DNA of 64,000 bases from Rhynchopus sp. YZ270_cl-10 (GCA_964035575.1 OZ037838.1:372001-436000); one strand, 5' to 3'. Counted from the first letter of the stretch, positions 10,743 to 62,383 are shown. Made by a program: numbers and translations. Notes: a model not told the origin generated them from the letters alone.

Positions 10743-11831
10743 CTAACCAGTGTGTGGGTACAGATGCTGTGTCACAATGACGCCATTTGATTTCATAACC
10801 ATAACAACACGTGAACACGGAGATATCGCAAATGCCCCATTCTCGGTTTGCGACAGAACACGCACACAGGACATGGTTGCCACATCATACTGGCGCAACA
10901 CGAGCATAGTCTTCACCACAAGGTACTTCCCACACGGGGTGAACTGCATGCCCTGGACACCCCCATCCACATCAACACTGCGAAGAGCTGCACCACTCCA
11001 ATCAAAGAGCTGCACGGTGTTTATAAAGAGGCGTTCACTGATATCGCTCCCCACAGCAATGACAGAGGCAGACCGTGAAAGCGCCGCTACACACCACCTG
11101 ACCGCAGGCAGAAATGCCACAGCTTCACCTGTGTTCACATCCCACAGACGTACGTTGTCCTCACTGGAGGTGGCCACCCACCCACCACAGTCCGACAGTG
11201 CCACGTCCCAGCACCCTTCGTGCGAGAGAGAGCGGAGCAACGTCAGGTCTTCGTCATACACAGAGACGCCGTCTGTGCCCTTCGAGACAACAACACCGCC
11301 ACACGTCCGTATTGAAACGGAGGGGCAGTCGACTTTGCGGACCACCTCCCCACCCGGAAGTGCAACCTCGAGAAGGCAATCCTTGTATGCCAGGTAGCAG
11401 CGTGTCTTGCGCTGCGAGATGGCAGCCGGACCGTACACTTCATTGGCCACTTTGAACGAGAAGACAGTGTTGAAGGTTTCTGTGTCGAAGCCGCCAACGT
11501 CCCCACTCTCGTTACTGTGGATGCAGAGCGTTCCACAACGCGACAGCGTCAACGACGTCGCTTGTGGTTCTGCAGTGTACTTAGCAGGACACTTGATGTC
11601 GGCAAAGCGAGGGCGGGCAAGCACAACCTGCACCCCTGCATCAAACGCAGTGTCCTGCAGACGGCACGTCCCCTCCAGCACCTGCGTGCCGATGCGCATC
11701 TCGACAGACGCAGGCGAGACAGCAAGCGCCGTGCACGCAACCTCCTTTGCCGCTGCAACGTCCGCCTCGCACGGCACCTCCACTGTCGCAGTCACGCCTG
11801 ACTCTTCCAGCACAAAGGTCACATCCATCAT
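10743..11831 (-). CDS. UBL-WD40 propeller family, copy 1
   Basis: MMDVTFVLEESG... beta-grasp pattern without C-terminal GG, followed by 7 blade motifs (LSRCG, ISQ.K, CGG, SDCGG..RLWDVNTG, LSRSAS, FTPCGKY, ISPCSR). Start set at the conserved ATG. Confidence 0.9.
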   Translation of the reverse strand: MMDVTFVLEESGVTATVEVPCEADVAAAKEVACTALAVSPASVEMRIGTQVLEGTCRLQDTAFDAGVQVVLARPRFADIKCPAKYTAEPQATSLTLSRCGTLCIHSNESGDVGGFDTETFNTVFSFKVANEVYGPAAISQRKTRCYLAYKDCLLEVALPGGEVVRKVDCPSVSIRTCGGVVVSKGTDGVSVYDEDLTLLRSLSHEGCWDVALSDCGGWVATSSEDNVRLWDVNTGEAVAFLPAVRWCVAALSRSASVIAVGSDISERLFINTVQLFDWSGAALRSVDVDGGVQGMQFTPCGKYLVVKTMLVLRQYDVATMSCVRVLSQTENGAFAISPCSRVVMVMKSNGVIVTQHLYPHTG

Positions 11832-12133
11832 ATTGTTAAGGGCTCTGTTGTGTTTGATGTGATGATTGGTGGTGTCACTTCGCAATGACAAATAAGAAGG
11901 TTGGTGGGTTAAATACGTGTTTCAACAAACTCTGACAAAGCGAGCAATTTGAAGATACCCTGCGGCAAACACACAGGAGCGAGGCGACCTGACTGTGAGA
12001 CAGGCAAACAAGAGAAAAGCAGCAACAGGGCTGAAAAGGGGAGTTTCTTGGGGGTGTTTTGTCTTGGGTTTTTTTTTGCTGGTGCCCTGGGGTATATTCA
12101 TCACCACCCTCCCTCCCCTCCCCTGGTCACACA

Positions 12134-13243
12134 TCACTCACTGTTGTGTGGGTACAGATGCCTTGTCACAATGAGGCCAGGTGGCATCGCCACAACGACA
12201 CGTGAACACGGCGATATCTCAAACCATGAACGGTCGCATGGTATTACACGCACACAGGACATGGTCGCCACATCATACTGGTGCAGCTCATCTTCTCTAA
12301 CATAGTCATAAAGCATGACCCCCACCACAAGGTACTTCCCACACGGGGTGAACTGTATTCCCTGTACATCCTCCACATCAATGATGCCCAGCGCCACACC
12401 ACTCCAATCATAGAGATGCACGCGGTGCATACTTTCAGAGCATACCACAGCAAAGACAGAGGCAGACCGTGAAAGCGCCACTTGTGCGCACCCCCACATC
12501 CCCTCCGCTGGCACACATGCCACAGCTTCTCCTGTGTTCACATCCCACAGACGTGCATTCTGCCCCACCCAGGAGGAGGTGACCACCCACCTGCCACAGT
12601 GCGACACTGCCGCTTTCGCACACCGGTCGTGTGAGAGAGAGCGGAGCAACGTCAGGTCTTCGTCATACACAGAGACGCCATCTTCGCCTCGTGAGAAAAC
12701 AGCACCACCACGCGCAAACACTGAGTGCGAGGAGCCGTCGACTTTGCGGACCACCTCCCCACCCGGAAGCGCAACCTCCAGAAGGCCTTCCTTGCATGCC
12801 AGGTAGCAGCGTGTCGTGCACTGCGAGATGGCAGGCGGACCACGCACACTATGGGGTATGTTGAACTCAAAGACACGGGAAAAGGTTTCTGTCTCCAAAC
12901 CAACAACATTCTTATCACAAACATAGATGCAGAGCGTTCCACAACGCGACAGCGAGATCCTTGAGTTCTTCGATGACGGCTTAAGTTTCTGCTCAGCAGG
13001 ACACTTGATGTCGGCTAAGCGAGGGCGGGCAAGCACAACCTGCACCCCTGCATCAAACGCAGTGTCCTGCAGACGGCACGTCCCCTCCAGCACCTGCGTG
13101 CCGATGCGCATCTCGACAGACGCAGGCGAGACAGCAAGCGCCGTGCACGCAACCTCCTTTGCCGCTGCAACGTCCGCCTCGCACGGCACCTCCACTGTCG
13201 CAGTCACGCCTGACTCTTCCAGCACAAAGGTCACATCCATCAT
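12134..13243 (-). CDS. UBL-WD40 propeller family, copy 2
   Basis: Intact paralog with the same architecture. Confidence 0.9.
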   Translation of the reverse strand: MMDVTFVLEESGVTATVEVPCEADVAAAKEVACTALAVSPASVEMRIGTQVLEGTCRLQDTAFDAGVQVVLARPRLADIKCPAEQKLKPSSKNSRISLSRCGTLCIYVCDKNVVGLETETFSRVFEFNIPHSVRGPPAISQCTTRCYLACKEGLLEVALPGGEVVRKVDGSSHSVFARGGAVFSRGEDGVSVYDEDLTLLRSLSHDRCAKAAVSHCGRWVVTSSWVGQNARLWDVNTGEAVACVPAEGMWGCAQVALSRSASVFAVVCSESMHRVHLYDWSGVALGIIDVEDVQGIQFTPCGKYLVVGVMLYDYVREDELHQYDVATMSCVRVIPCDRSWFEISPCSRVVVAMPPGLIVTRHLYPHNSE

Positions 13244-13891: not shown

Positions 13892-14980
13892 TCACTCACT
13901 GTTGTGTGGGTACAGATGCCTTGTCACAATGACGCCATCAGGTTGCATAACCATGACAACACGTGAACACGGCGATATCGCAAATGTCCCATCCATGTCT
14001 TTCGGCTGCGGTTGCGGTATCACACGCACACAGGACATGGTCGCCACGTCGTACTGGTGCAGGAAAACATCGTCAACCACAAGGTACTTCCCACATGGTG
14101 TGAACTGCATGCCCTCGATACCTCCACCCACATCAACACTGCGAAGAGCCGCACCACTCCAATCAAAGAGGCGCACACTGACATCGCTCCCCACAGCAAA
14201 GACAGAAGCAGACCGTGAAAGCGCCACTGCATAGCACCACTCCTCATGCACACATGCCACACAAACCCCTGTGTTCACATCCCACAGACGTATGTTCTTC
14301 TCCTCCCAGGAGGAGGTGATCACCCACCCACCACAGTCCGACAGTACCATGTACGTGCACCCTCCGTGCGAGAGAGAGCGGAGCAACGTCAGGTCTTCGT
14401 CATACACAGAGACGCCGCCTTTGCCTTTGCCTTGGGAAACAACAACACCGCCACACGCGAACACTGAGAACGAAGGGCCGTCGACTTTGCGGAGCACCTC
14501 CCCACCCGGAAGCGCAACCTCGAGAAGGCCTTCCTTGCACGCCAGGTAGCAGCGTGTCTTGCACTGCGAGATGGCAGGCGCACCGTGCACACTATGGGGT
14601 ATGTTGAACTCAAAGACACGGGCAAAGGTTTCTGTGTCGAAACCGACAACATTCCCACCACAAACATAGACGCAGAGCGTTCCACAACGCGACAGCGAGA
14701 ACACTACGTCCGTCAATATTGTTAATTTCTGCTCAGCAGGACACTTGATGTTGGCAAAGCGGCGGGCAAGCACAACCTGCACCCCTGCATCAAACGCAGT
14801 GTCCTGCAGACGGCACGTCCCCTCCAGCACCTGCGTGCCGATGCGCATCTCGACAGACGCAGGCGAGACAGCAAGCGCCGTGCACGCAACCTCCTTTGCC
14901 GCTGCAACGTCCGCCTCGCACGGCACCTCCACTGTCGCAGTCACGCCTGACTCTTCCAGCACAAAGGTCACATCCATCAT
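13892..14980 (-). CDS. UBL-WD40 propeller family, copy 3
   Basis: Intact paralog. 5' flank shared with the copy at 42458-43546. Confidence 0.9.
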   Translation of the reverse strand: MMDVTFVLEESGVTATVEVPCEADVAAAKEVACTALAVSPASVEMRIGTQVLEGTCRLQDTAFDAGVQVVLARRFANIKCPAEQKLTILTDVVFSLSRCGTLCVYVCGGNVVGFDTETFARVFEFNIPHSVHGAPAISQCKTRCYLACKEGLLEVALPGGEVLRKVDGPSFSVFACGGVVVSQGKGKGGVSVYDEDLTLLRSLSHGGCTYMVLSDCGGWVITSSWEEKNIRLWDVNTGVCVACVHEEWCYAVALSRSASVFAVGSDVSVRLFDWSGAALRSVDVGGGIEGMQFTPCGKYLVVDDVFLHQYDVATMSCVRVIPQPQPKDMDGTFAISPCSRVVMVMQPDGVIVTRHLYPHNSE

Positions 14981-15547: not shown

Positions 15548-16684
15548 TCACTCGTTGTGGGGGTACAGATGTCTTGTCGCAATAGTGGTGCGTTCGCGTG
15601 ATACAAACACAACCACACGCGAACACGGTGATACCACAAATGATTGACCCTTGAGACCAGGAATCACAAGTGCACAGGACATGGTCGCCACATCATACTG
15701 GTGCAGCTCTGAATATGTGGTTCCATCGTCAGTATGCTTGTGGACACGGACCACAAGGTACTTCCCACAGTGGGTTAATTGCACGCCAACCACACGTCCA
15801 GAGATGGCGGCGTTCTGAAGAGCCGCACCACTCCAGTCGTAGAGCTGCACACTCGCTGCTTCGTCCACATTGTCCACCACAGCAAAGACAGCAGAACTTG
15901 GAAGAGCCTCACACCGTCCATCCGTAGGTACACATGCCACAGCTTCACCTGTGTTCACATCCCACAGACGTACATTCTTCTCACCGATGGAGGAGGTGAT
16001 GACCCACCCACCACAGTGCGATGCCACCACCCCGCTGCACCCTTCGTGCGAGAGAGAGCGGAGCAACGTCAGGTCTTCGTCATACACAGAGATGCTCCCT
16101 CGGATACGAGAGACAACAACACCGCCACACGCAAACACTTGAATCGAGCTGTCGACTTTGCGGAGCACCTCCCCACCCGGAAGCGCAACCTCATGCAGAC
16201 CTTCCCTGCCCGCCAGGTAGCAGCGTGTCTTGCACCGTGAGATGGCAGGCGCACCGCACACCTCAATGTCTACTTTGAACCTGAAGGCAGGGCTGAAGGT
16301 TTCTGTATCGAGGCCGGTGACATATCCTGCCTTCTGTACATAGAGAGCCTGTGTAAGGAGGCAGAGTGCTCCACAGGGAGACAGCGATAAATGATTAACA
16401 TTCATCGGATGCCTAACAGATAGCACCTCTACACTGTACTCAGCAGGACACTTGATGTCAGCAAAGCGGCGGGCAAGCACAACCTGCACCCCTGAATCAA
16501 ACGCAGTGTCCTGCAGACGGCACGTCCCCTCCAGCACCTGCGTGCCGATGCGCATCTCGACAGACGCAGGCGAGACAGCAAGCGCCGTGCACGCAACCTC
16601 CTTTGCCGCTGCAACGTCCGCCTCGCACGGCACCTCCACTGTCGCAGTCACGCCTGACTCTTCCAGCACAAAGGTCACATCCAT
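15548..16684 (-). CDS. UBL-WD40 propeller family, copy 4
   Basis: Intact paralog, LSPCGALCL subfamily. Confidence 0.9.
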   Translation of the reverse strand: MDVTFVLEESGVTATVEVPCEADVAAAKEVACTALAVSPASVEMRIGTQVLEGTCRLQDTAFDSGVQVVLARRFADIKCPAEYSVEVLSVRHPMNVNHLSLSPCGALCLLTQALYVQKAGYVTGLDTETFSPAFRFKVDIEVCGAPAISRCKTRCYLAGREGLHEVALPGGEVLRKVDSSIQVFACGGVVVSRIRGSISVYDEDLTLLRSLSHEGCSGVVASHCGGWVITSSIGEKNVRLWDVNTGEAVACVPTDGRCEALPSSAVFAVVDNVDEAASVQLYDWSGAALQNAAISGRVVGVQLTHCGKYLVVRVHKHTDDGTTYSELHQYDVATMSCALVIPGLKGQSFVVSPCSRVVVFVSRERTTIATRHLYPHNE

Positions 16685-16798
16685 TGTTTTCTTCAGGGCC
16701 TGTTGTGTTTGATGTGATGTATCCTCCCTGACTTCGCAACTCGAGTGTTCAGGTCAACGACATTCATAAAGAATGGGAAGGCAACACTGCTCACATTG

Positions 16799-17770: not shown

Positions 17771-18868
17771 CTATTGTGTGGGGTACAGAGGTCTCGTTAC
17801 GATTCTGTTGCTTTCGGGCGACGCCAGCACAACAACACGTGAGCACGGTGATATCGCAAACGATGAACTGCCATAACCTGGGATCACGTGCACACAGGAC
17901 ATGGTCGCCACATCATACTGGTGCAGGTGTGTATCGCAACCATCTGCGTCATAAGCTTCCACAACATGCACCTCGACCACAAGGTACTTCCCACACGGGG
18001 TGAACTGCATGCCCGCTACATCCCCACCCACATCAACACTGCGAAGAGCAGCACCACTCCAATCATAGAGGTGCACGGTGTTAGAGGACCGCACAGCGAA
18101 GACAGAGGCAGACCGTGAAAGCGCCACTACACACCACCTACCCGCAGGCACACATGCCACAGCTTCACCTGTGTTCACATCCCACAGACGTACGTTCTTC
18201 TCCTTGTTGGAGGAGGTGATCACCCACCCACCACAGTCCGACAGGGCCACACACCAGCACCCTTTGTGCGAGAGAGAGCGGAGCAACGTCAGGTCTTCGT
18301 CATACACAGAGACGCCGTCTTCACACCATGAGACAACGACACCACCACACGCTAGCACTACTCTCCAAGTGCTGTCAAGTTTGCGGAGCACCTCACCACC
18401 CGGAAGTGCAACCTTGCGTATGTCTGACTCGCACGCCAGGTAGCAGCGTGTCTTGCACTGCGAGATGGCAGCCGGACCGGACACTTCCGTATCCACTTCG
18501 AACGAGAAGACAGTGTCGAAGGTTTCTGTGTCGAAGCCACCAACACCACCGGTCCAGTTACTATGTACGCAGAGCGTTCCACAACGCGACAGCGACAAGC
18601 ATTCCGGATATGCGTCGTACTCAGCAGGACACTTGATGTCGGCAAAATAGCGGGCAAGCACAACCTGCACCCCTGCATCAAACGCAGTGTCCTGCAGACG
18701 GCACGTCCCCTCCAGCACCTGCGTGCCGATGCGCATCTCGACAGACGCAGGCGAGACAGCAAGCGCCGTGCACGCAACCTCCTTTGCCGCTGCAACGTTC
18801 GCCTCGCACGGCACCTCCACTGTCGCAGTCACGCCTGACTCTTCCAGCACAAAGGTCACATCCATCAT
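17771..18868 (-). CDS. UBL-WD40 propeller family, copy 5
   Basis: Intact paralog. Confidence 0.9.
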   Translation of the reverse strand: MMDVTFVLEESGVTATVEVPCEANVAAAKEVACTALAVSPASVEMRIGTQVLEGTCRLQDTAFDAGVQVVLARYFADIKCPAEYDAYPECLSLSRCGTLCVHSNWTGGVGGFDTETFDTVFSFEVDTEVSGPAAISQCKTRCYLACESDIRKVALPGGEVLRKLDSTWRVVLACGGVVVSWCEDGVSVYDEDLTLLRSLSHKGCWCVALSDCGGWVITSSNKEKNVRLWDVNTGEAVACVPAGRWCVVALSRSASVFAVRSSNTVHLYDWSGAALRSVDVGGDVAGMQFTPCGKYLVVEVHVVEAYDADGCDTHLHQYDVATMSCVHVIPGYGSSSFAISPCSRVVVLASPESNRIVTRPLYPTQ

Positions 18869-19128: not shown

Positions 19129-20250
19129 TCACTCACTGTTGTGTGGATACAGATGCCTTGTCACAATGACGCCACCTGGTTGCATCGCCATGACAACGCG
19201 TGAACACGGCGATATCGCAAAGGACCCTCCAAATGTTTGCGGTATCACATCCACACGGGACATGGTCGCCACATCATACTGGTGCAAGTAAAAGTTGTGC
19301 GCGTCCCTAGATTCCGCAACCTCTACCCTCACCACAAGGTACTTCCCACACGGGGTGAACTGCATGCCCTTGATGTCCTCGACTTCCCCACCCACATCAA
19401 CACTGCGAAGAGCCGCACCACTCCAATCATAGAGGTGCACGGTGTTTTGTTCCTCCACCACAGCAAAGACAGAGGCAGACCGTGAAAGCGCCACCTCCCA
19501 ACATCTGCCTGCCTGCATACATACCACAGCTTCACCTGTGTTCACATCCCACAGACGTACGTTCTTCTCCTTCCTGGAGGAGGTGATCACCCACCCACCA
19601 CAGTCCGACACTGCTGGTTTGCCACACACCAGGTGCGAGAGAGGGCAGAGCAACGTCAGGTCTTCGTCATACACAGAGACGCCGTCTGTGCCCTGCGAGA
19701 CAACAACACCACCACACGCGAACACTGAGTACGAGATGCTGTCGACTTTGCGGACCACCTCCCCACCCGGAAGCGCAACCACAAGAAGGTGATGCTCACA
19801 CGCCAGGTAGCAGCGTGTCTTGCACTGCGAGATGGCAGGCGCACCGTACGCACTATGGGGTATGTTGAACTCAAAGACACGGGCAAAGGTTTCTGTGTCG
19901 AAACCGGCAACAACATTACCATCATAAACAGAGACGCAGAGCGTTCCACAACGCGACAGCGAAATCTTTTCGGTTATCGATTCCCTCTTGAAATTGAACC
20001 GAGCAGGACACTTGATGTTGGCAAAGCGAGGACAGGCAAGCACAACCTGCACCCCTGCACCAAACGCAGTGTCCTGCAGACGGCACGTCCCCTCCAGCAC
20101 CTGCGTGCCGATGCGCATCTCGACAGACGCAGGCGAGACAGCAAGCGCCGTGCACGCAACCTCCTTTGCCGCTGCAACGTCCGCCTCGCACGGCACCTCC
20201 ACTGTCGCAGTCACGCCTGACTCTTCCAGCACAAAGGTCACATCCATCAT
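19129..20250 (-). CDS. UBL-WD40 propeller family, copy 6
   Basis: Intact paralog. Confidence 0.9.
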   Translation of the reverse strand: MMDVTFVLEESGVTATVEVPCEADVAAAKEVACTALAVSPASVEMRIGTQVLEGTCRLQDTAFGAGVQVVLACPRFANIKCPARFNFKRESITEKISLSRCGTLCVSVYDGNVVAGFDTETFARVFEFNIPHSAYGAPAISQCKTRCYLACEHHLLVVALPGGEVVRKVDSISYSVFACGGVVVSQGTDGVSVYDEDLTLLCPLSHLVCGKPAVSDCGGWVITSSRKEKNVRLWDVNTGEAVVCMQAGRCWEVALSRSASVFAVVEEQNTVHLYDWSGAALRSVDVGGEVEDIKGMQFTPCGKYLVVRVEVAESRDAHNFYLHQYDVATMSRVDVIPQTFGGSFAISPCSRVVMAMQPGGVIVTRHLYPHNSE

Positions 20251-20892: not shown

Positions 20893-21558
20893 CTACAGAT
20901 CGAACCGGTGCACCTGGTCCCCTGCCTTGAAGCATACTGAGGCAAATGAGAACTCTGCGGGCTTGCTCAGGGGTCTTGGTGTGGTGTGCGTGCAGGTGTT
21001 TGGCCGTGTTGCGATGGTGATGTGCGGTGTAGGGTCTTTGAAATACCTTCTGAAGCCGAGGCTGTGGAGTGCGGTGTCAGCTGCGTCGATGAGGGCAAGG
21101 ATGTGCTCAGAGCGTGACGTCACCACAGCGAACTCTGTTGTGCCTTCCTCATTCACAAATACGTCTTCATGCGTGAAGCTTGCATCAAACGGTGGAAACG
21201 GTGTGAACCCTGCTCCCAGCGCCTCCGCCACCTGCACGATGTCACCCTTGTTCATGTAGAGCTGGCGACTCAGCGAGACGTGTGGGTGTGCTATCGGCGT
21301 CCAGCCTTCCTCCACCGGGAAGGCGAGCTGCGGCACCTCCAGATACACAATGCCAGACCACATGCCCACCTGGTGTGCCTGGTGCCGTACGCGTGTCGCA
21401 GGTGCAGGTCCTGGTTCCAACGATCCGACAGTGTCCTGCGGTGCGGGCGGCACATCGCGTTTCCTCTTCCGTCGGCGCCGTTTCGCTAGCACCGTGTCGT
21501 CGGGTGGGGTCTCATGACCATCGTCACTGCCCGACCCATAAAGCGCAATGCCGTCCAT
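20893..21558 (-). CDS. USB1: U6 snRNA phosphodiesterase (2H phosphoesterase, Usb1/Mpn1 family), 221 aa
   Basis: RVRHQAHQVGMWSGIVYL matches the Usb1 R.R.F.H..GNW motif. Two catalytic motifs, HVSLSR and PHITIA, plus FVNEEGTTEF and a basic NLS-like stretch. The longer ORF in the track is a satellite artefact. Confidence 0.85.
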   Translation of the reverse strand: MDGIALYGSGSDDGHETPPDDTVLAKRRRRKRKRDVPPAPQDTVGSLEPGPAPATRVRHQAHQVGMWSGIVYLEVPQLAFPVEEGWTPIAHPHVSLSRQLYMNKGDIVQVAEALGAGFTPFPPFDASFTHEDVFVNEEGTTEFAVVTSRSEHILALIDAADTALHSLGFRRYFKDPTPHITIATRPNTCTHTTPRPLSKPAEFSFASVCFKAGDQVHRFDL

Positions 21559-21633
21559 CGAGGGGGTGTGATAAAGTGAACTGTGAAGAAGGTCAAGGTG
21601 GAGGGGGGATGAGCAGAGGATGATGAAGAAGAT

Positions 21634-22409
21634 TGTACTGTACTGTACTGTACTGTACTGTACTGTACTGTACTGTACTGTACTGTACTGTACTGTACTG
21701 TACTGTACTGTACTGTACTGTACTGTACTGTACTGTACTGTACTGTACTGTACTGTACTGTACTGTACTGTACTGTACTGTACTGTACTGTACTGTACTG
21801 TACTGTACTGTACTGTACTGTACTGTACTGTACTGTACTGTACTGTACTGTACTGTACTGTACTGTACTGTACTGTACTGTACTGTACTGTACTGTACTG
21901 TACTGTACTGTACTGTACTGTACTGTACTGTACTGTACTGTACTGTACTGTACTGTACTGTACTGTACTGTACTGTACTGTACTGTACTGTACTGTACTG
22001 TACTGTACTGTACTGTACTGTACTGTACTGTACTGTACTGTACTGTACTGTACTGTACTGTACTGTACTGTACTGTACTGTACTGTACTGTACTGTACTG
22101 TACTGTACTGTACTGTACTGTACTGTACTGTACTGTACTGTACTGTACTGTACTGTACTGTACTGTACTGTACTGTACTGTACTGTACTGTACTGTACTG
22201 TACTGTACTGTACTGTACTGTACTGTACTGTACTGTACTGTACTGTACTGTACTGTACTGTACTGTACTGTACTGTACTGTACTGTACTGTACTGTACTG
22301 TACTGTACTGTACTGTACTGTACTGTACTGTACTGTACTGTACTGTACTGTACTGTACTGTACTGTACTGTACTGTACTGTACTGTACTGTACTGTACTG
22401 TACTGTACT
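21634..22409. repeat. (TGTAC)n = (CAGTA)n satellite, ~155 units
   Basis: Perfect 5-mer tandem array starting ~75 bp upstream of the USB1 ATG. Confidence 0.99.
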
Positions 22410-23791: not shown

Positions 23792-26702
23792 TCATGTATC
23801 TGCAACCGACAAGACAGGCTCAAGCTTATACTCCGTCTCGCACACCGCCCTTGCTGCAGTGCAGTGTTTCTCGAACTCCGCTCTGTCAGTGTCGCCAAGC
23901 TTCTCCGCCACAGCAGCAGCGTCGTCCCACTGTGCTGCGAAGACATGCACCATGGCAGCGTTGTAGCACTCATAGGGGTTTGCTGCGGCGCATTTGTCCA
24001 GCTGGTACATCCACTCCTCGTTCTGGGTCTCCATCTCCTCACGCAGCTCGCTCAGGACTAGTTTCGCACGGAACTTTGGATACGACACACAGGCGACAGT
24101 CTTCGAGTAGAAGGCATTCGCAACAGGTGAGTGCGTGATGTTGTCGTGCAGGATCGTTGTGCCGTACGTTTTGTTCAGTCTCTCGAGTGCGTGCAGCCAC
24201 GGCACACACCCGCCAAGGAAGGTGTACTTCTTCATGCCTTCGCAGCCCATGTTCCCGCACCGCACCTCTGCACAGACGAAGGCCATCGAGAGTGTCCACT
24301 TCTGTGCCAACAGCGTCTTGTGAGTGCGCACCCTGTGCGAGAACTTCGCTGCCTGCAGCTTCGCCGAGCTGCAGTGGCGTGCACCGTTCCAGTGCGTCAA
24401 GACACGGTCGCCTGAGAATCCGTCGTTCACACCGTTGTATGCGTGCGTGATGGACAGCACCGTGCTCAGGTACTCCGTGTGGCGTGCCTGCATCTCGCCA
24501 GTCGGCAACTCACGTGAGGCTTCAAAGAAGCCACGCACGTTCACCACGGAAAGGGCCACCTTCTTTTGGTCAAGCTTCTGCATGGTGAGGAACTGGTGCT
24601 GTGCAGTGGGTGACGCAGGTACGGAGCCATTGCTGCGGCTCTTGCGCGATGCTTGCGTCTTGTCGTCCAAGTCGCTCTCATCCTCCGTCTCAGTCTCAGT
24701 CCGCGACACATCCTCAACCAGCACAGAGGCAGGCATGTAGTTGCGGTACTCCTTCAGGTTGCGAAGCATCTGCAGGAACGACGTCTGCATGTGTCCCACC
24801 TCCTCGATGTTGCTGATGGCACGTGTCTCATCCACCTGCGACAGGTTCATCACAGCCACACGCGCCATCTCCTCCTGCAGCTGTACCAAAGGTGCGACAA
24901 TGCGGAGGACCAGCATCAGTGCCAGCAGCATCAGCAGCACACTTGCAACCACAACAGTCACAACAAGGATGATGCGAGAACGCACAAGCTTCTCATCCAC
25001 GCTGTCAACCTCGTCACGGATGCGCTCCTGTGCAGCAAGTGTGCTCCGGTCAATGTCGCCAAGTATGTACTCTCGGTCGAGGGTGACCACCAGCCACCAG
25101 TCCACACCGTAGCCGTCGTTCACACGTTGCACTCTGTGTTGTGGTGTGGTGTCATTCATTGGGACAAAAGCTACGCAGCAAAGACACAAACTGGAAGAGA
25201 AACAAAGCATGCCACCTCACACATACCTCAAGAAGAACTGCTCCTCAGTCCCGTTGACGGAGATCGAGTACTCGTAAATGGTCTTGTTCGCCATCGCCTC
25301 GTAGCGCCCGTCGACAGCGTGAATGTGTCGGGCGGTGGAGCTGATGATCTCGTCCGTTTCACATCGGGAAGTTGGGAGGCGACCATAGTCGCCGGGTCAT
25401 AAGCGTGCCCGCTGTGATGTGGTGGTTCAGTTTACCTGGGGTGTTCGTGTTGACTAAATCAGGCTGCTTTACATGATCCTCACCACACCATTGTTACCAA
25501 CTTTTACGTGAGGGACCACTTGCGGTCAACCAGCATTGCTATCACTTTGATAGATGCGAACCTTGTTTCTGATGTGAACTGAACAAGCTACATTCCAAGA
25601 AGTACCTCTTCTTGCTTGAGCGCTGCAGAATAAAACGAAACAGAAAAAGAAACACATACTCTCCGTGCGAAACTGCAGTCAGAATGTACTTCTGGTTGAA
25701 GTCTGGGATACCCGACACATCATACATCCAGTCACTATTCACAGACGTGTACAGCCTTCCCTTTGACGTGGTCCCTCCCTTCCCGAGCTTCAGACGCCCC
25801 AGCTCACGTGAAATGGCACGCACGTCAAGACCGTTCATGACAGCACCAAGACGCACACCGTTTGCAGTCTCGTGTGACCATGTGCCCATCATCAAGATAA
25901 CGATGTACGGCGGTATAGGGAAGAGAGGACTCCACCGCACACCAGCCTCACCATGCACCTGCAAGAAGTCAGTTAAGGAATATACGTCTTTCTGGTCGTA
26001 CTTCCATGTTACGCAGCGAGGTGACGGCTGTGCACCGTTCGTTTCGAATGCCCTGCCGTCATGCGTGCATCCCATCTGCAGCCCATCCGTTGATCGGTAC
26101 GTCGAGTTCTCTGGAGCAAGAAACTGACCTGTGTAAGGATCTGCCGTGCCGATGATAGTGCGTATCGCTGTCGGTGCACCTGCCTCAGCATCGTAGTCGC
26201 TGCCGTTGTTCCTATCCGCCATGTAGTGATGGTACCCGCCAACTGGGTTCGAAATCGTGCGAAAGTCTTCAAACATCGTGACACCCTGTCCCTTGTGCCC
26301 GATCAAGGAAACAGCAGTTGCCCCCATACCATTGAACATACGCAGCTCGTTTATCACTGAGGAACTCTTCTCGTCCATGAACGCCCACGACTCAGTCACC
26401 TCCGGTGGGAACGAACCCATCTCAGCAGCCAGCTTCTGCGTCCGGACACGGTGCACGGAAAGGAAGTTGACAATGATCTGCGACGCTCCCTCCTGCACAG
26501 ACGTCAGGTAGTCCTCCAGTGCTGCCCGCAAGGACGCGTCCCCGGTGCCAAAGCATTGGTCAGCAGTGCTCTCAACGAGCGTGTTTGTGTCGGCCAGTGC
26601 ATCGTCGGCACTCGTGATGCTCATCACCATGCACACCACGGCTGTGATCACAATGCAGGCTAGCGCAAGCAGGATGTTCAGGTTCCGCAACGACACTTTC
26701 AT
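23792..26702 (-). CDS. Receptor-type TM-extracellular-TM-HAMP-class III nucleotide cyclase-like protein, 3 exons (26702-25660, 25411-25227, 25133-23792); apparent 1-nt frameshift in exon 2
   Basis: N-terminal TM, a second TM (IILVVTVVVASVLLMLLALMLVL), HAMP (APLVQLQEEMARVA..EEVGHMQTSF) and cyclase fold (VVNVRGF, FSGDRV, CGNMG..KYTFLG). Both introns are GTATGT...ACAG. Exon 2 is 185 nt between two phase-2 junctions. Confidence 0.8.
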
Positions 26703-29890: not shown

Positions 29891-30466
29891 TGTTTTATTT
29901 GCCAGTACTCCTTTGCGTTTAAAAGAACCCCCAAACCCTCCCTGACCCACTAAACCAAACCTGCTGTACTGATAAAGTGTGGGGGGAAGAGAAGCGTGAG
30001 GAGCATGGCAATCTTCGTGTATTGGTGTGTTCGGAATCAGACGGGGAAATGTGGAAATCGGGAGTGGTGTAGGAATTTTCTGGTTTGAGGGGCCCTCCGC
30101 TTATTCCTCACCTTCCCTGATACAATGAAGAGGCTGCACTGAACACCAACTTCCACAATGCAGGCACTTCACCCAAAATGAAAATAATTCTCCACCATTC
30201 ACGCTCTTCGGGGTAAAGGGTCTGATGGTGGGGGAAAGAAGGGGGCGAAGATGATGAATTATCAGAGGATTGTGAGACGGCGAACCTCGTGGACAATGAG
30301 TTCGAGAGTCGTGGACGTGATACTTATTAGCGTCGACAACGTCGCACGCATCTCAAAATCTTACGTACACTCTCTGTTGATTCTAAAACGGGGGAGGGTA
30401 AAAAAGGCGTGAAAGGTAAATTGGGGAAGAGGTATATGTCACAAGTGTCATGTCACCGAAAAATTA

Positions 30467-30580
30467 TACTCAGCAGGACACTTGATGTCGGCAAAGCGAG
30501 GGCAGGCAAGCACACCCTGCACCCCTGCACCCTTCACCAAACGTCTCCCACCATGAGACAACGACACTGCCACACATACG
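30467..30580 (-). pseudogene. Scrambled micro-fragments of the UBL-WD40 family
   Basis: 30467-30531 matches the UBL/linker junction (VLACPRFADIKCPAEY). ~30541-30576 resembles a blade-3 segment. The two pieces are in non-native order. Confidence 0.65.
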
Positions 30581-36438: not shown

Positions 36439-36520
36439 TCAGTCACTGTTGTTTGGGTACAGATGTCTTGTAACAATGACGCCATCTGAGTGCATAACCA
36501 CAACAACACGTGAACACGGC
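36439..36520 (-). pseudogene. 3' remnant of a UBL-WD40 gene
   Basis: PCSRVVVVMHSDGVIVTRHLYPNNSD*. Together with its 3' flank it is near-identical to 28655-28868. Truncated next to the transposon nest. Confidence 0.85.
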
Positions 36521-46879: not shown

Positions 46880-48061
46880 TCACTCCCCCTCCCCTCCCTC
46901 CCCACCGCTTTCCTCCCCTCCACTGACACATTGCTCACCAGAGTATGGGTGCAGATGCTGTGTCACAATGACGCCGTCTGATTGCATAACCATAACAACA
47001 CGCGAACACGGCGATATCGCAAATTCCCCATTCTCCATTTGCGGCATAACACGCACACAGTACATGGTCGCCACATCATACTGGTGTAGGTATGACTCGA
47101 AATCGGGGCAAATGCTGCTGCAATCGGCGTCCTCATCATCCATATACTCCGCAACCTCTACCCTCACCACAAGGTACTTCCCACATGGTGTGAACTGCAT
47201 GCCCCCGACACCCCCACCCACATCAACACTGCGAAGAGCCGCACCACTCCAATCAAAGAGGTGCACCATGCCAGAGCACCCCACAGCAAAGACAGAGGCA
47301 GACCGTAAAAGCGCCACTCTACCCCACCTACCCGCAGGCACACATGCCACAGCTTCACCTGTGTTCACATCCCACAGACGTACGTTCTTCTCCTTGTAGG
47401 AGGAGGTGATCACCCACCCACCACAGTCCGACAGTGCCAGGTCCCTGCACTCTTCGTGCGAGAGAGAGCGGAGCAACGTCAGGTCTTCGTCATACACAGA
47501 TGCGCCGTCTGTGCCCTTCGAGACAACAATATCGCCACACGTCCGTATTGAAACGGAGGGGCCGTCGACTTTGCGGACCACCTCCCCACCCGGAAGCGCT
47601 AACTCGAGAAGGCAATCCTTGCATGCCAGGTAGCAGCGTGTCTTGCACTGCGAGATGGCAGGCGGACCGTACATTTCATTGGCCACTTTGAACGAGAAGA
47701 CAGTGTCGAAGGTTGCTGTGTCGAAGCCGCCAACATCCCCACTCTCGTAACTATGGACGCAGAGCGTTCCACAACGCGACAGCGACAACGACGACGCGAA
47801 CATCTCTACGCTGTACTCAGCAGGACACTTGATGTCAGCAAAGCAGCGGGCAAGCACAACCTGCACCCCTGCATCAAACGCAGTGTCCTGCAGACGGCAC
47901 GTCCCCTCCAGCACCTGCGTGCCGATGCGCATCTCGACAGACGCAGGCGAGACAGCAAGCGCCGTGCACGCAACTTCCTTTGCCGCTGCAACGTCCGCCT
48001 CGCACGGCACCTCCACTGTCGCAGTCACGCCTGACTCTTCCAGCACAAAGGTCACATCCAT
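46880..48061 (-). CDS. UBL-WD40 propeller family, copy 15
   Basis: Intact paralog. C-terminus extended where copy 1 has TAG and this copy has GAG. Confidence 0.9.
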   Translation of the reverse strand: MDVTFVLEESGVTATVEVPCEADVAAAKEVACTALAVSPASVEMRIGTQVLEGTCRLQDTAFDAGVQVVLARCFADIKCPAEYSVEMFASSLSLSRCGTLCVHSYESGDVGGFDTATFDTVFSFKVANEMYGPPAISQCKTRCYLACKDCLLELALPGGEVVRKVDGPSVSIRTCGDIVVSKGTDGASVYDEDLTLLRSLSHEECRDLALSDCGGWVITSSYKEKNVRLWDVNTGEAVACVPAGRWGRVALLRSASVFAVGCSGMVHLFDWSGAALRSVDVGGGVGGMQFTPCGKYLVVRVEVAEYMDDEDADCSSICPDFESYLHQYDVATMYCVRVMPQMENGEFAISPCSRVVMVMQSDGVIVTQHLHPYSGEQCVSGGEESGGEGGEGE

Positions 48062-56772: not shown

Positions 56773-58863
56773 CTAGACTGGAACGGGGGTGCTTGCACAG
56801 CCCCATCCGAAGTTGAAGGACGGAATCACATCAGGCAGGTTGACGTAGATCACGACTGTCCCAAGGTAGTGCTTCGTGCCGTCGGCTGTGACGGTGTCAA
56901 CGAGAGCACCTGCTTCGTCGTAGATGGAGAAGGTCTGTCCGCCCATGTCTCTGAAGTTGAACTTCGACATGTCGGTGCTGCCGCACTGAGAGTACTTCCA
57001 GCAGTGCACACCACCGACAGCAAGGTCGTCAGACCAGAACCACTCGTCGCCATTCCCAATCTCTCCAACTTTGGCAGTGCACACATCAGGGTAGCCAGGG
57101 GGTGCAGGCACGTTGGTGTCAGGTGGGTTGGTTGCCGGAGGGTCGGTAGCAGGTGGGTTGGTGGCAGGTGCGTCAGTGGTTGCGCACGACCAGCCGAAGT
57201 TGAAGGACGGAATCACATCAGGCAGGTTGACATGGATGATGACATTACCAAGGTAGTGCTTCGTGCCCGCTGTGGTGACGGTGTCGATGAGCATGCCTGC
57301 CTCGTTGTAGATGGAGAAGGTCTGTCCGCCCACGTCTCTGAAGTCGAACTTCGAGAACGAACCTGCACTGCACACAGCGTACTTCCAGCAGTGCACACCA
57401 CCGACAGCAAGGTCGTCAGACCAGAGCCACTCTTCGTCATTCCCAATCTCTCCAGCTTTGGCAGTGCACACATCAGGGTAGCCAGGGGGCGCAGGCACGT
57501 TGGTGTCCGGTGGGTTGGTTGCCGGAGGGTCGGTAGCAGGTGGGTTGGTGGCAGGCGCGTCAGTGGTTGCGCACGACCAGCCGAAGTTGAAGGACGGAAT
57601 CACATCAGGCAGGTTGACATGGATGATGACATTACCAAGGTAGTGCTTCGTGCCCGCTGTGGTGACGGTGTCAATGAGCATGCCTGCCTCGTTGTAGATG
57701 GAGAAGGTCTGTCCGCCCACGTCTCTGAAGTCGAACTTCGAGAACGAACCTGCACTGCATACAGCGTACTTCCAGCAGTGCACACCACCGACAGCAAGGT
57801 CGTCAGACCAGAGCCACTCTTCGTCATTCCCAATCTCTCCAGCTTTGGCAGTGCACACATCAGGGTAGCCAGGGGGCGCAGGCATGTTCGTGGGTGCAAT
57901 CGTGTCCGGTGGGTTGGTTGCTGGCGGGTCAGTAGCCGGAGGGTCGGTAGTAGGTGGGTCGGTTGCTGGCGGGTCGGTGGCAGGTGGGCTGGTGGCCGGA
58001 GGGTTGGTTGCTGGCGGGTCCGTTGCCGGCGCACTTGAGGTTGCTGCTGCTCCACATGTGTGGGCCAGGATGAAGCCCGACTCCTGCATCGAGTAGTCGC
58101 TGGTGAAGTGCAGCAGAACGTGCCCCGCAGCAGACACCACGAACGGCGTGGCCAGTGGCCCAGACATCTCCTTGACCACTGTGGGCACGTTGCCTTCGTA
58201 CTGCGAGATGGCAAGCACGTCGTAGGTGGGCTCTGTGATGAAGAGGCTGAAGTCCATCCCGACGACGGCCTCGCACTGCAGCAGCCAGCAGACGTTCTCA
58301 TTCGCTTTGTACGTACCTGCGTGCGAGATCACACCGTCCTCGGTCACCACGTTGCGCACCCCACAGGAGTCCGGGAAGGGCACAACAGACGGCGCATAAG
58401 TCGGCGGTGCCGGGGTCGGCACGTTCGAAGTAGGAGCGGCAGTGCCACAGACGAAGGTGATGTCGAAGCCGGTCTTCTCCACACGACCGTCGCTTACAAA
58501 ACGGAAGACGACATCACCTTCGTACGAGACGGGGCCTTCGTCATCAATGTGCCCCGTCAGCTGCGAATCCCGTGTGTAGTACTGCGACCCCTTGCGCGAG
58601 TATGTCTCCACAAAGTCGTCGCCCTCCTCCGTATCGACGCGGTCCCACGTCACCTGGACAGAGTGCGCGCAGGAAAACCGCCAGCAGCGGTTCTCATTGG
58701 GCTCGTACCGCCAGGGGTGGTTGCGTGTCCCCGGGTAGCTCACGTAGCCGATGGTGTCCGTGACGACGACCTGTTCGGCGTGTCTGCAGACGTAAGGGTA
58801 GTCCTCCGCCGCAGCGACAGTTGTCGCAAGGGCACACACAACAACAGACACTAAGCCACGCAT
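56773..58863 (-). CDS. Secreted protein: signal peptide, two CUB domains, PAT(N/D)P linkers and three ~129 aa repeats
   Basis: MRGLVSVVVCALATTVAAA signal peptide. CUB motifs YEPNENRCW..DTEEGDDFV..FVSDG..TGF and YKANENVCW..TEPTYDVL..FTSDYS..SGF. Repeat period is 387 bp. Confidence 0.85.
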   Translation of the reverse strand: MRGLVSVVVCALATTVAAAEDYPYVCRHAEQVVVTDTIGYVSYPGTRNHPWRYEPNENRCWRFSCAHSVQVTWDRVDTEEGDDFVETYSRKGSQYYTRDSQLTGHIDDEGPVSYEGDVVFRFVSDGRVEKTGFDITFVCGTAAPTSNVPTPAPPTYAPSVVPFPDSCGVRNVVTEDGVISHAGTYKANENVCWLLQCEAVVGMDFSLFITEPTYDVLAISQYEGNVPTVVKEMSGPLATPFVVSAAGHVLLHFTSDYSMQESGFILAHTCGAAATSSAPATDPPATNPPATSPPATDPPATDPPTTDPPATDPPATNPPDTIAPTNMPAPPGYPDVCTAKAGEIGNDEEWLWSDDLAVGGVHCWKYAVCSAGSFSKFDFRDVGGQTFSIYNEAGMLIDTVTTAGTKHYLGNVIIHVNLPDVIPSFNFGWSCATTDAPATNPPATDPPATNPPDTNVPAPPGYPDVCTAKAGEIGNDEEWLWSDDLAVGGVHCWKYAVCSAGSFSKFDFRDVGGQTFSIYNEAGMLIDTVTTAGTKHYLGNVIIHVNLPDVIPSFNFGWSCATTDAPATNPPATDPPATNPPDTNVPAPPGYPDVCTAKVGEIGNGDEWFWSDDLAVGGVHCWKYSQCGSTDMSKFNFRDMGGQTFSIYDEAGALVDTVTADGTKHYLGTVVIYVNLPDVIPSFNFGWGCASTPVPV

Positions 58864-58930
58864 GGTGTGCTGTCCAGAGTTTTTGTTCTCTTCTTTTGGT
58901 TCTTTTGGAGGGTTTGCGGGATAAAACGTC

Positions 58931-59297
58931 TGGTGGTGTTGGTGGTGTTGGTGGTGTTGGTGGTGTTGGTGGTGTTGTGGTGTTGGTGGTGTTGGTGGTG
59001 TTGGTGGTGTTGGTGGTGTTGGTGGTGTTGGTGGTGTTGGTGGTGTTGGTGGTGTTGGTGGTGTTGGTGGTGTTGGTGGTGTTGGTGGTGTTGGTGGTGT
59101 TGGTGGTGTTGGTGGTGTTGGTGGTGTTGGTGGTGTTGGTGGTGTTGGTGGTGTTGGTGGTGTTGGTGGTGTTGGTGGTGTTGGTGGTGTTGGTGGTGTT
59201 GGTGGTGTTGGTGGTGTTGGTGGTGTTGGTGGTGTTGGTGGTGTTGGTGGTGTTGGTGGTGTTGGTGGTGTTGGTGGTGTTGGTGGTGTTGGTGGTG
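58931..59297. repeat. (TGGTGGTGT)n minisatellite, ~40 units
   Basis: 9-mer tandem array ending ~67 bp upstream of the CUB gene ATG. Confidence 0.98.
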
Positions 59298-59819
59298 GGA
59301 GACAGAGAGATGGAGGGAGGGGAAGGGGGCTACACCCTGCTGACAATTCGGAGTCGCGAACCGCGTGTTCTAACAACAAGAAGGGGGACGAGGTACAAGG
59401 ACCTACTCTCTCGGGATCGGCAAGAAGACAGTGACGACGCAGTGCGCAGTGCGCCCTCACAGCAGAACATGCCCTTCTGGCAGTGAAGGGCAATGAGACG
59501 ATGTTGCATGTAATGTGGTGGTTCTCGTTGTGAGAGGTGACAAATGGAAAAGAGTAGTTGAAAGTGCAAACGCGCCACCGTTCATCGGCGGACGCAGGCA
59601 CTGAAAAATGATACTCAACATCGCGATCTGTCACCCACACGAGAGCACCACATGGGCAGCGTGTGAGGTGTGCGACCTGTGGCAGGCAAACAAGAGAAAA
59701 AGCAGCAACAGGGCTAAAGGGGGATTTCTTGGGGGTGTTTTGAGGGTCTTGGGTTTTTTTTTTGCTGTGACCATGGGTTATATTCATCACCACCCTCCCT
59801 CCCGTCCCCTGGTCACACG

Positions 59820-60913
59820 TCACTCACTGTTGTGTGGGTACAGATGTCTTGTCACAATGACGCCATCTGGTTGCATAACCATAACAACACGTGAACACGG
59901 TGATATCGCAAACCATGAACTGTTGCATGGTATCACGTGCACACGGGACATGGTTGCCACATCAAACTGGTGTAGGTGTACATCGCAATCTTCATAATTT
60001 TCGTCATCAGCATCAAATTCCAAAGCACGTATCCCCACCACAAGGTACTTCCCACACGGAGTGAACCGCATGCCCTGGACACTCTCACCCACATCAACAC
60101 TGCGAAGAGCCGTACCACTCCAGTCATAGAGCTGCACGTCGTCTTCCTCCTCCACCACAGCAAAGACAGAGGCAGACCGCGAAAGCGCGACAACGTGACT
60201 TGATACAGGCACACATGCCACAGCTTCACCTGTGTTCACATCCCACAGACGTGCCTTCTTCTCCTTGTAGGAGGAGGTGATCACCCACCCACCACAGTCC
60301 GACACTGCCGTGTCCCAGCAGCCTTCGTGCGAGAGAGAGCGGAGCAACGTCAGGTCTTCGTCATACACAGAGACCCCGTCTTTGCCTTGGGAGACAACAA
60401 CACTGCCACACGCGAACACTGAGTATAAGATGCCGTCGACTTTGCGGACCCGGAAGCGCAACCTCGAGAAGGCCTGCCTTGCATGACAGGTAGCAGCGTG
60501 TCTTGCACTGCGAGATGGCAGGCGGACCGAACACTTCATTGTCCACTTCAAACGAGAAGACAGTGTCGAAGGTTTCTGTGTCGAAACCGTCAACATGCCC
60601 ACTATCCTCCGGACTATAAACGCAGAGCGTTCCACAACGCGACAGCGACAAGTCTCCCGTCTGCGTTGCAGTGTACTTAGCAGGACACTTGATGTCGGCA
60701 AAGCGGCGGGCAAGCACAACCTGCATCCCTGCAACAAACGCAGTGTCCTGCAGACGGCACGTCCCCTCCAGCACCTGCGTGCCGATGCGCATCTCGACAG
60801 ACGCAGGCGAGACAGCAAGCGCCGTGCACGCAACCTCCTTTGCCGCTGCAACGTCCGCCTCGCACGGCACCTCCACTGTCGCAGTCTTCCAGCACAAAGG
60901 TCACATCCATCAT
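59820..60913 (-). pseudogene. UBL-WD40 family pseudogene
   Basis: Full-length homolog split over three frames by 11 nt deletions at ~60886 and ~60450. Confidence 0.88.
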
Positions 60914-61258
60914 ATTGTTAAGGGCTCTGTTGTGTTTGATGTGATGGTTGGTGGTGTCACTTCGCAACGACAAATAAGAAGGTTCGTGGGCTAAATACGT
61001 GTTTCAACAAACTCTGATAAAGCAAGCAATTTGAAGATACCTACTGAAGAGAGACCTAGAGTCTAGGGGAACACCGTGGGTGGACCCGCGGCTGATCCCC
61101 CTAGACATAGATGGCGTGCGAAGAGTTTTCTTTGCATTCTTCTTCGCATTCGGGGGGGAAAGCTAAAAGGGGTTTCTTGGGGGTGTTTTGAGGGTCTTGG
61201 GTTGTTTTGGGTTAAATACATCACCACCCTCCCTCCCCTCCCCTCCCCTGGTCACACA

Positions 61259-62383
61259 TCACTCACTGTTGTGTGGGTACAGATGTCTTGTCGCAATGAC
61301 GCCATCTGGTTGCATAACCATGACAATAAGTGAACACGGCGATATCGCAAAAGACCCATAAATGGGTTGCGGTATCACACGCACGATGGACATGGTCGCC
61401 ACATCATACTGGTGCAGGTATAACTTGTGCCCGTCACAATAGCCATCAGGATCGTCCTCTGTAAATTCAGAAACAGCTACCGACACCACAAGGTACTTCC
61501 CACACGGGGTGAACTGCATGCCCCCGACATCCCCGCGAATAGCAACACTGCGAAGAGCCGCACCACTCCAATCAAAGAGGCGTACGGTGCTTCCCACCCC
61601 CTCCACAGCAAAGACAGAAGCAGACGAAGAAAGCGCCACCTCCCAACATCTGCCTGCCGGCATGCATACCACAGCTTCACCTGTGTTCACATCCCACAGG
61701 CGTATCCTCTTCTCCCAGGAGGAGGTGATTGCCCACCTGCCACAGTGCGACAGGGCCATGTTCCTGCACCCTTCGTGCGAGAGAGTGCGGAGCAACGTCA
61801 GGTCTTCGTCATACACAGAGACGCCGTTTTCCCCCTGGGAGAGAACAACACCGACACGCGCGTACACTGCCATCGAGAGGCCGTCGACTTTGCGGAGCAC
61901 CTCCCCACCCGGAAGTGCAACTTTGATAAGGCTGTTCCAACACGTCAGGTAGCAGCGTGTCTTGCGCTGCGAGATGGCAGGCGCACTCGACACTTTAGTG
62001 TACACTCTGAACTCGAAGACAGTGTCGAAGGTTTCTGTGTCGAAGCCGCCAACGTCCCCACTGTCGTTACTGTGGACGCAGAGCGTTCCACAACGCGACA
62101 GCATCAACGTCGTCGCTTGCGGTTCTGCACTGTACTTAGCAGGACACTTGATGTCGGCAAAGGGGCACGCAAGCACAACCTGCACCCCTGCACCAAACGC
62201 AGTGTCCTGCAGACGGCACGTCCCCTCCAGCACCTGCGTGCCGATGCGCATCTCGACAGACGCAGGCGAGACAGCAAGCGCCGTGCACGCAACCTCCTTT
62301 GCCGCTGCTACCTTCGCCTCGCACGGCACCTCCACTGTCGCAGTCACGCCTGACTCTTCCAGCACAAAGGTCACATCCATCAT
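61259..62383 (-). CDS. UBL-WD40 propeller family, copy 16
   Basis: Intact paralog. Confidence 0.9.
   Translation of the reverse strand: MMDVTFVLEESGVTATVEVPCEAKVAAAKEVACTALAVSPASVEMRIGTQVLEGTCRLQDTAFGAGVQVVLACPFADIKCPAKYSAEPQATTLMLSRCGTLCVHSNDSGDVGGFDTETFDTVFEFRVYTKVSSAPAISQRKTRCYLTCWNSLIKVALPGGEVLRKVDGLSMAVYARVGVVLSQGENGVSVYDEDLTLLRTLSHEGCRNMALSHCGRWAITSSWEKRIRLWDVNTGEAVVCMPAGRCWEVALSSSASVFAVEGVGSTVRLFDWSGAALRSVAIRGDVGGMQFTPCGKYLVVSVAVSEFTEDDPDGYCDGHKLYLHQYDVATMSIVRVIPQPIYGSFAISPCSLIVMVMQPDGVIATRHLYPHNSE

Follow-up and report, generated by a model that had tools for sequence, protein, structure and literature searches.

An array of ubiquitin-like–WD40 genes in Rhynchopus sp. with one hypervariable propeller face: a candidate repertoire of protein binders

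Why would a protist keep side by side sixteen intact genes that agree almost letter for letter in one domain and differ from each other over one face of the next? The question is raised by a 64,000-nucleotide stretch of the genome of Rhynchopus sp. YZ270_cl-10 (GCA_964035575.1, OZ037838.1:372001-436000), which we analysed at its full length and call the window; positions are counted from its first letter. Between 10743 and 62383 it contains 16 intact intronless paralogs, each a single open reading frame (ORF) of 361-393 amino acids in the standard code, all on the minus strand, with 64-85% protein and 76-92% DNA identity between pairs. Each encodes a ubiquitin-like domain (UBL) at the N-terminus, followed by a WD40 propeller, in which the top face is hypervariable and positively selected and the bottom face is under purifying selection. 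We suggest that the family is a large repertoire of likely cytosolic binders for foreign proteins, which would be passed to one shared host machine; we give this reading about an even chance of being right.

The sixteen intact intronless paralogs counted in the initial annotation of this DNA are all confirmed, and a six-frame profile search, which gave no match in three frames of the shuffled window, adds three further members: one frameshifted copy, one 3' fragment and one distant relative. The features are as follows.

10743-11831, minus strand: UBL-WD40 copy 1, intact, 362 amino acids
11829-11984, minus strand: upstream element, example of the 130-190 nt type
12134-13243, minus strand: copy 2, intact
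13892-14980, minus strand: copy 3, intact; reference (P0001) for folding and residue numbering
13916-14734, minus strand: seven-bladed WD40 propeller of copy 3, residues 82-354 (AlphaFold2 model)
14756-14977, minus strand: UBL of copy 3, residues 1-74; beta-grasp, without Gly-Gly, near-invariant across copies
15548-16684, minus strand: copy 4, intact
17771-18868, minus strand: copy 5, intact; a 530-nt contig of run X2 is identical to its 3' end and flank
19129-20250, minus strand: copy 6, intact
28787-29890, minus strand: copy 7, intact
30611-31714, minus strand: P0121, a distant UBL-WD40 member with about 27% identity to the family
32762-33895, minus strand: copy 8, intact; its listed ORF begins upstream at 34000
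35026-36144, minus strand: copy 9, intact
about 36442-36519, minus strand: 3' fragment of a copy, last 25 codons, from the profile search
39134-40300, minus strand: copy 10, intact
40811-41926, minus strand: copy 11, intact
42458-43546, minus strand: copy 12, intact; its listed ORF begins upstream at 43756
43968-45116, minus strand: copy 13, intact
45416-46546, minus strand: copy 14, intact
46880-48061, minus strand: copy 15, intact; acidic C-terminal tail
59820-60913, minus strand: copy of full length, frameshifted twice (around codons 11 and 162)
61259-62383, minus strand: copy 16, intact

Domain architecture

The AlphaFold2 model of the reference copy, built from 101 sequences, is a seven-bladed propeller of 28 strands with a predicted local distance difference test (pLDDT) score mostly of at least 90, which Foldseek matches to G-beta over the whole query (E 6e-19, template modelling (TM) score 0.67). 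Pfam WD40-clan matches on the family proteins are mostly below the curated cut-offs. The UBL was left at pLDDT <50 in this first model, because the alignment is invariant there. In a second AlphaFold2 model, made with 11 diverse N-termini, residues 1-74 fold as a beta-grasp with pLDDT 82.5, and this model superimposes on ubiquitin, ISG15, the parkin UBL and the Dsk2 UBL with TM of about 0.8 and a root-mean-square deviation of 1.5-1.7 (structure match Z 12.4 over 75 residues). The UBL profile also matches ubiquitin by sequence (E ~1e-3) and the Pfam ubiquitin family is matched by four of the 11 N-terminal domains; a single UBL sequence used as query gave no match in PDB or Pfam. The N-terminal beta-grasp and the WD40 propeller proposed in the initial annotation are therefore both recovered, the latter with seven blades.

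As had also been noticed there, none of the 16 copies has Gly-Gly at the end of the UBL (residues 68-82), and neither a membrane segment (highest 19-residue hydropathy value 1.28-1.70) nor a signal peptide (at most 0.73 near the N-terminus; no dedicated signal-peptide predictor was run) is found in them by hydropathy. The proteins consist of UBL and propeller only: HET and NACHT domains are absent, no helix follows the UBL in the model, and the propeller model leaves no space for a UBA domain. Near-identical WD40 units inside one gene were not found in the window either, where the only offset self-match is weak, at 25% identity.

Variation, selection and exchange

Faces were assigned by the WD40 convention from the strand list of the model, not from surface exposure, with the D-A and B-C loops and adjoining strand halves as the top and the A-B and C-D loops and adjoining strand halves as the bottom. 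Over 125 proteins, comprising 120 database matches and five window copies and so biased towards the query, identity is 0.96 in the UBL, 0.87 on the bottom face and 0.47 on the top face. Mean entropy falls from 2.45 bits in the top loops through 1.46 in the top strand halves, 0.48 in the bottom halves and 0.31 in the bottom loops to 0.12 in the UBL, and none of 272 shifts of the face labels matches the observed top-minus-bottom contrast. Lengths follow the same division, since each of the 13 A-B/C-D segments has its modal length in 99% or more of the proteins, and the 14 D-A/B-C segments come in 4-24 distinct lengths each. Thirteen of these 14 top segments exist in 105-124 distinct versions, and similarity between copies in one segment barely predicts that in another (r 0.02-0.09). 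The most variable is the blade-6 B-C segment (reference residues 301-307), which is 8-36 residues long, 33% Asp/Glu and present in 124 versions among the 125 proteins; to judge from its composition, such an acidic loop may give a preference for basic ligands. Hypervariable codons are flanked by invariant ones, as codon 131 is by GTG and GGT. In six deeper relatives conservation is again layered, at 0.64-0.88 in the UBL, 0.60-0.79 on the bottom face and 0.24-0.39 on the top face. Lengths, entropy and label shifts all agree with the earlier proposal, made from the sequence alone, that the conserved blocks are the A-B/C-D turns and the variable ones the D-A/B-C loops; the blocks named at that time are found in the alignment of the copies, and variable residues are not spread over both faces or the core.

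The constant face carries a feature of its own. WD40 repeats usually have an aspartate at a position in the A-B turn where six of the seven turns of the family have a conserved cysteine (reference residues 98, 139, 175, 215, 295 and 337; 110-125 of the 125 proteins), and at least five of these cysteines recur in distant relatives. They could form a ring of cysteines for metal, redox or lipid modification.

Selection was tested on the 16 window coding sequences with in-house GY94 code. Twice the log-likelihood difference (2dL) between M2a and M1a is 601, with omega (dN/dS) of 6.3 on 16.5% of codons; M8 gains 611 over M7 and 582 over M8a. All 45 sites with posterior >0.95 lie on the top face, and at these sites identity among the 125 proteins is 0.19 and the number of residue types per site is 14.6. 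Homogenisation of the scaffold and recombination among the copies inflate the headline statistic. On gap-free codons 2dL is 201 for the propeller and 56 for the top (omega 3.2), and the M2a gain for bottom codons alone is not significant; with double and triple hits allowed the tests give 106, 30 and 68. In 70 neutral simulations with recombination the maximum was 28.2, against 54.7 observed. When synonymous-rate variation and multiple hits are both modelled, 2dL is 20.0 for the propeller (p 5e-5), 25.0 for all top codons (p 4e-6) and 0 for the bottom, and a class with omega of about 3 persists in the propeller and in all top codons. The dN/dS of the bottom face is 0.44 (confidence interval (CI) 0.31-0.64), a sign of purifying selection, and that of the top loops is 1.16 (CI 0.92-1.49) or 1.45 (CI 1.17-1.82), depending on kappa. 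The site-model check that the initial annotation had called for thus finds a codon class with dN/dS >1 on the top face, so that the loops are not all at or below 1, and these models support positive selection, with omega of about 3, acting on a minority of the top codons.

The copies also recombine. Compatibility is higher between neighbouring sites than between sites far apart (p 0.001); for every third of the propeller, the trees obtained from the remaining thirds are rejected (approximately unbiased test, p <0.001); and near-identical tracts span variable loops in otherwise distant pairs, such as codons 114-140 of the copies at 13892 and 28787. A run-length conversion test puts 15 of 120 pairs at the floor p, but it is confounded by clustered conservation and was therefore used only to point out example tracts. 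These patterns indicate that sequence is exchanged between copies. Birth-and-death is directly visible, as intact, frameshifted and fragment copies stand side by side. Adenine-directed mutagenesis of the kind known from diversity-generating retroelements was considered and rejected: all three positions of the hypervariable codons vary, and the last base can be any of the four. No reverse transcriptase was found among the window ORFs scanned.

The UBL is the most constant part, with 59 of 71 codons invariant and dS 0.023 in the 16 copies. Since it is constant at the DNA level, this reflects concerted evolution or recent spread and is not proof of constraint, and it is the six older relatives that support a longer-term constraint on its sequence. 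The "fixed UBL effector" of the initial annotation therefore holds in part: among the 16 copies what is fixed is the DNA, and only the deeper relatives speak for a fixed protein. Positions 23, 63, 64 and 72-74 are the only recurrently variable ones in this domain (D/K/N; D/G/E; A/S; R/C; F/L), and the changes there are mostly non-synonymous.

The array, its relatives and its neighbours

Full-length copies are intact in 16 of 17 cases, despite many in-frame indels; the frameshifted one is either a pseudogene or an assembly error. An upstream element of 130-190 nt, at 94-98% identity, precedes eight of the 16 intact copies as well as the frameshifted one, and two further upstream types are each found in one pair of copies. 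The repeated unit is therefore the gene with short flanks. Differing upstream flanks abut the same start codon among copies. A 530-nt contig of sequencing run X2, which perhaps is the window's own source, corresponds to the 3' end and flank of the copy at 17771 with no differences, so that this copy is not an assembly artefact. Run X4 does not cover this end and flank at 98% identity, a gap from which we draw no conclusion. Run X11, conjectured to be RNA, covers intergenic DNA as well. The distant member P0121 has a single close relative (P0122, 76% identity); the main family next to it is expanded, but this member is not. Just beside it, 30451-30528 (minus strand) gives a weak profile match (E 1e-4) to the UBL-linker region and is possibly another gene remnant.

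A protein search from one copy returned 433 matches at E <=0.001 among 5,945 candidates, and our statements on membership rest on the best 120 of these. All 120 are family members, at 54-100% identity; 33 lie on the 456,684-nt contig that is listed for the window's own proteins, 77 on a contig of 2,712,987 nt and the remaining ten on contigs of seven other sizes, the records being silent on whether they come from a single assembly. When 1.84 billion representatives are searched with a profile, ever more distant UBL-WD40 proteins (P0130-P0144, P0177, P0219, P0249) appear, and beyond them generic WD40 proteins; ten looked up were ENA singletons. The short conserved blocks, with differing loops between them, occur in sequencing runs of at least four studies. 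Among the members, P0128, P0130 and P0067 show an insertion, an internal duplication or added length, as would fit unequal exchange within genes. Viral and metagenome contigs scanned for exact patterns, a set that leaves out prokaryote genome contigs, gave no relative, and a search for the UBL on other architectures with distant UBLs as query returned only the five input UBL-WD40 proteins, which is weak evidence. We found no description of an expanded UBL-WD40 family in the open-access literature searched, most subscription papers being outside that search. The main text of the D. papillatum genome paper mentions neither WD40 nor ubiquitin. The WD-annotated rows seen of its supplement file 5, which exclude unannotated rows and four of the six "WD40" places, list at most 14 D. 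papillatum members and at most 27 from any species.

All recognisable genes of the window lie on one strand, a layout that fits the co-transcribed gene clusters described, in parts of one report, for a diplonemid (PMC10161547). Inside the array, 20893-21558 (minus strand) encodes a USB1-like 2H phosphoesterase (Pfam HVSL, E 4e-15), single in the window, and 23792-26804 (minus strand) is a multi-exon receptor-like gene with a HAMP and a class III cyclase-like domain, whose GT-AG introns, with CA-rich 3' ends, mark the DNA as eukaryotic. At 56773-59787 (minus strand) there is a CUB-domain protein that has Thr/Pro-rich spacers and three repeats of 129 aa (387 nt) each; its likely start is an internal Met, with a signal-like segment. 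Long perfect microsatellites are found at 6741-7447, (CAGTACA)101; at 21634-22409, (TGTAC)155, which yields two spurious long ORFs; and at 58931-59297, (TGGTGGTGT)41. No Rfam family matches in the window.

Possible function and rival explanations

How could such a family work? In the mechanism that we propose, each copy would combine a different, selected top face with a UBL and a bottom face that are constant. By the WD40 convention the top face would be the ligand site. The long identical stretches would serve as start points for gene conversion and crossovers, which would homogenise the scaffold and at the same time reshuffle the loops. The proteins would be cytosolic, as no signal or membrane segment is seen, and their ligands non-self: selection that favours novelty on the top face points to changing ligands, of which viral or intracellular-bacterial proteins are the simplest case. 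Diplonemids carry endosymbionts rich in secretion systems, according to parts of a preprint (bioRxiv 10.1101/719211). The UBL and bottom face would dock on one host machine, most likely the ubiquitin-proteasome or p97 system, with the UBL acting as an adaptor and not as a conjugated tag, via a surface other than the I44-type patch. The output would probably be degradation, since ubiquitin and shuttle-type UBLs are the nearest folds and midnolin offers a precedent: it degrades bound substrates without ubiquitination and requires its UBL, as excerpts of one study report (PMC10617673). Midnolin, Rad23 and Dsk2 resemble the family in combining a non-conjugated N-terminal UBL with a substrate-capture module. 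They differ in that the family has no Catch domain, C-terminal proteasome helix or UBA and has the L8/I44/V70 patch replaced, and in being single or few genes without diversifying selection.

The principle of joining a constant adaptor to a diversified binder is known from other systems; the adaptive-looking use of a UBL-WD40 chassis for it would, in the open-access literature searched, be undescribed. Expansions of F-box and BTB-MATH adaptors were reportedly proposed by Thomas in 2006 to target foreign proteins. Caenorhabditis F-box genes combine a constant N-terminal adaptor with a positively selected substrate-binding C-terminus, stand in tandem arrays and are read as serving foreign-protein recognition (PMC8665587). 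Nematode and plant F-box and BTB/MATH adaptors share with our family the tandem, lineage-specific expansion to hundreds, the birth-and-death and the selected C-terminal binder; however, the N-terminus here is a UBL, with no F-box or BTB and hence no known cullin link, and the binder is a WD40 propeller, where selection is limited to a single face. The likeness to fungal HET-E and HET-D suggested in the initial annotation survives the comparison. In the HNWD NOD-like receptors (NLRs; HET-D, HET-E, HET-R), excerpts of the published analysis describe positive selection on the top face and concerted evolution by exchange (PMC2873952), and both top-face selection and sequence exchange are found in our family as well. 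HNWD proteins differ, though, by their HET and NACHT domains, their near-identical repeat units and their number of about ten genes, whereas the family has hundreds of genes with seven blades that are divergent within a gene and fixed in number, and exchange takes place between paralogs at matching positions. The best reading of these comparisons appears to be that the family works like nematode F-box adaptors or fungal HNWD sensors and is a member of neither, and no already characterised family with another role was matched.

A number of results weigh against the proposal of foreign-protein binders. It is built on sequence and predicted structure, and the DNA behind the selection tests comes from 16 copies. 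A grid method with site-specific dS places 28 of its 31 selected sites on the top and three on the bottom face; with blade-specific trees five of the seven blades are significant and blades 4 and 6 are not; and in the strictest model the gap-free top codons reach only 2dL 7.0 (p = 0.03). Neutral simulations show that recombination alone inflates such statistics. Pairwise dS climbs with dN, from 0.02 in the UBL through 0.20 on the bottom to 0.54 on the top; as top-face dS is about three times that of the bottom face, a difference in rate, or conversion, accounts for some of the variability, and pairwise dN/dS for the whole top face (0.97-1.15) has intervals that include 1. For the UBL, dN/dS of 0.93 (CI 0.33-2.55) is uninformative and gives no purifying signal among the 16 copies. 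The docking end raises difficulties too. A hydrophobic patch of the L8/I44/V70 type is a feature of the UBL-UBA proteasome shuttles Rad23 and Dsk2, and at these three ubiquitin positions the profile alignment has E9, R45 and A71 of the family. The proteasome coupling put forward in the initial annotation is therefore doubtful in its ordinary Rad23/Dsk2-type form, and without the I44-type patch the docking partner is not predictable by analogy. DDB1-CUL4-associated factors (DCAFs), which are WD40 adaptors, have a WDxR motif; 15 of the 16 copies contain no [WY]DxR, and the single YDLR is incidental and begins in a variable loop. F-box, BTB, UBA, UBX and RING domains have no Pfam match at E <=0.1 in five family copies and the distant member.

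Could the pattern have arisen without adaptation, by selfish expansion through unequal crossover and gene conversion, with the exposed top loops drifting under locally raised mutation or micro-conversion? WD40 top loops are generally tolerant of change, top-face dS is about 25 times that of the UBL, mean dN/dS there is near 1, and site-rate variation and multiple hits take away most of the likelihood gain. It is the significant omega class left under that same treatment, together with purifying selection on the bottom face, the intactness of nearly all full-length copies in spite of their indels and the recurrence of the top-variable pattern in much older relatives, that makes us regard this explanation as quite unlikely. 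In another reading the binder-plus-adaptor mechanics would be the same but the ligands the protist's own or those of its kin: proteins of allorecognition, of mating or fusion partners, or of transposons and other selfish elements. All the sequence evidence fits this equally well, and it has precedents in HNWD propellers, whose top-face selection serves allorecognition (PMC2873952), and in nematode F-box genes that degrade host enzymes in hybrids (PMC11573670). Nevertheless, hundreds of near-unique surfaces would exceed the need posed by few self ligands, and we think recognition of self or kin unlikely, if a little less so than drift.

The remaining two alternatives turn on the UBL. If it were an export header of the Crinkler (CR) type, the propellers would be offensive effectors which bind prey, host or competitor proteins. 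CR headers, as sections of a survey describe them, are ubiquitin-like, lack a true signal peptide and sit on expanded recombining families (PMC5289972), and the Pfam Crinkler family is hit at E 0.086, below the cut-off, by two of the 11 N-terminal domains, both from distant members. But an LXLFLAK-like motif and toxin or nuclease domains are missing, there is no swapping of C-terminal domains, the C-terminus being always one propeller with its diversity on one binding face, and in both family and structure searches the top matches are to ubiquitin and type II UBLs; the distant-UBL search, weak evidence as it is, also gave UBL-WD40 proteins only. Judged by sequence, the similarity looks limited to the fold class and the two sub-threshold matches, and we hold the effector explanation to be distinctly unlikely. 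The other candidate would derive the family from the ribosome assembly factors Ytm1/WDR12 and Rsa4/NLE1 and have it work like them, with the UBL pulled by the Rea1 (midasin) ATPase. These share with it the layout of an N-terminal UBL and a seven-bladed WD40 propeller in one chain, and the nearest language-model neighbours include NLE and WD40 clusters (0.84-0.85), which is only a lead. Against this, Pfam NLE (PF08154) is matched by none of the 11 N-terminal domains at E <=1, and assembly factors are conserved low-copy genes, not diversifying arrays. The position which we provisionally take to be the equivalent of Rsa4 E114 and Ytm1 E80 (ubiquitin E64) is G65 here; in Ytm1 and Rsa4, which are conserved, an acidic residue of the UBL serves the Rea1 metal ion-dependent adhesion site (MIDAS), as stated in part of the literature (PMC6624252). 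A ribosomal role seems very improbable to us.

If the ligands are foreign proteins, as we propose, a more specific picture can be drawn, which we offer tentatively, as a real possibility that will probably not hold in full: a germline-encoded intracellular immune repertoire of a free-living, probably diplonemid-like euglenozoan protist, in which hundreds of antibody-like WD40 faces are reshuffled by gene conversion while the scaffold stays fixed, each coupled to a ubiquitin mimic by which captured proteins of viruses or endosymbionts are destroyed with no need for an E3 ligase. Such a system would put a midnolin-like output on an NLR-like repertoire, a combination without a described counterpart. 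The recognition of intracellular invaders in free-living single-celled eukaryotes is largely an open field, and the family provides a concrete, testable candidate for it: a small binder made as one chain from an intronless gene, whose variable face is mapped and whose docking end is constant. Should the immune reading be true, it would represent an independent invention of a diversified receptor repertoire and would point to a new UBL-reading machine. Whatever the biology, the family amounts to a natural library, with several hundred propeller surfaces presented by a single stable scaffold.

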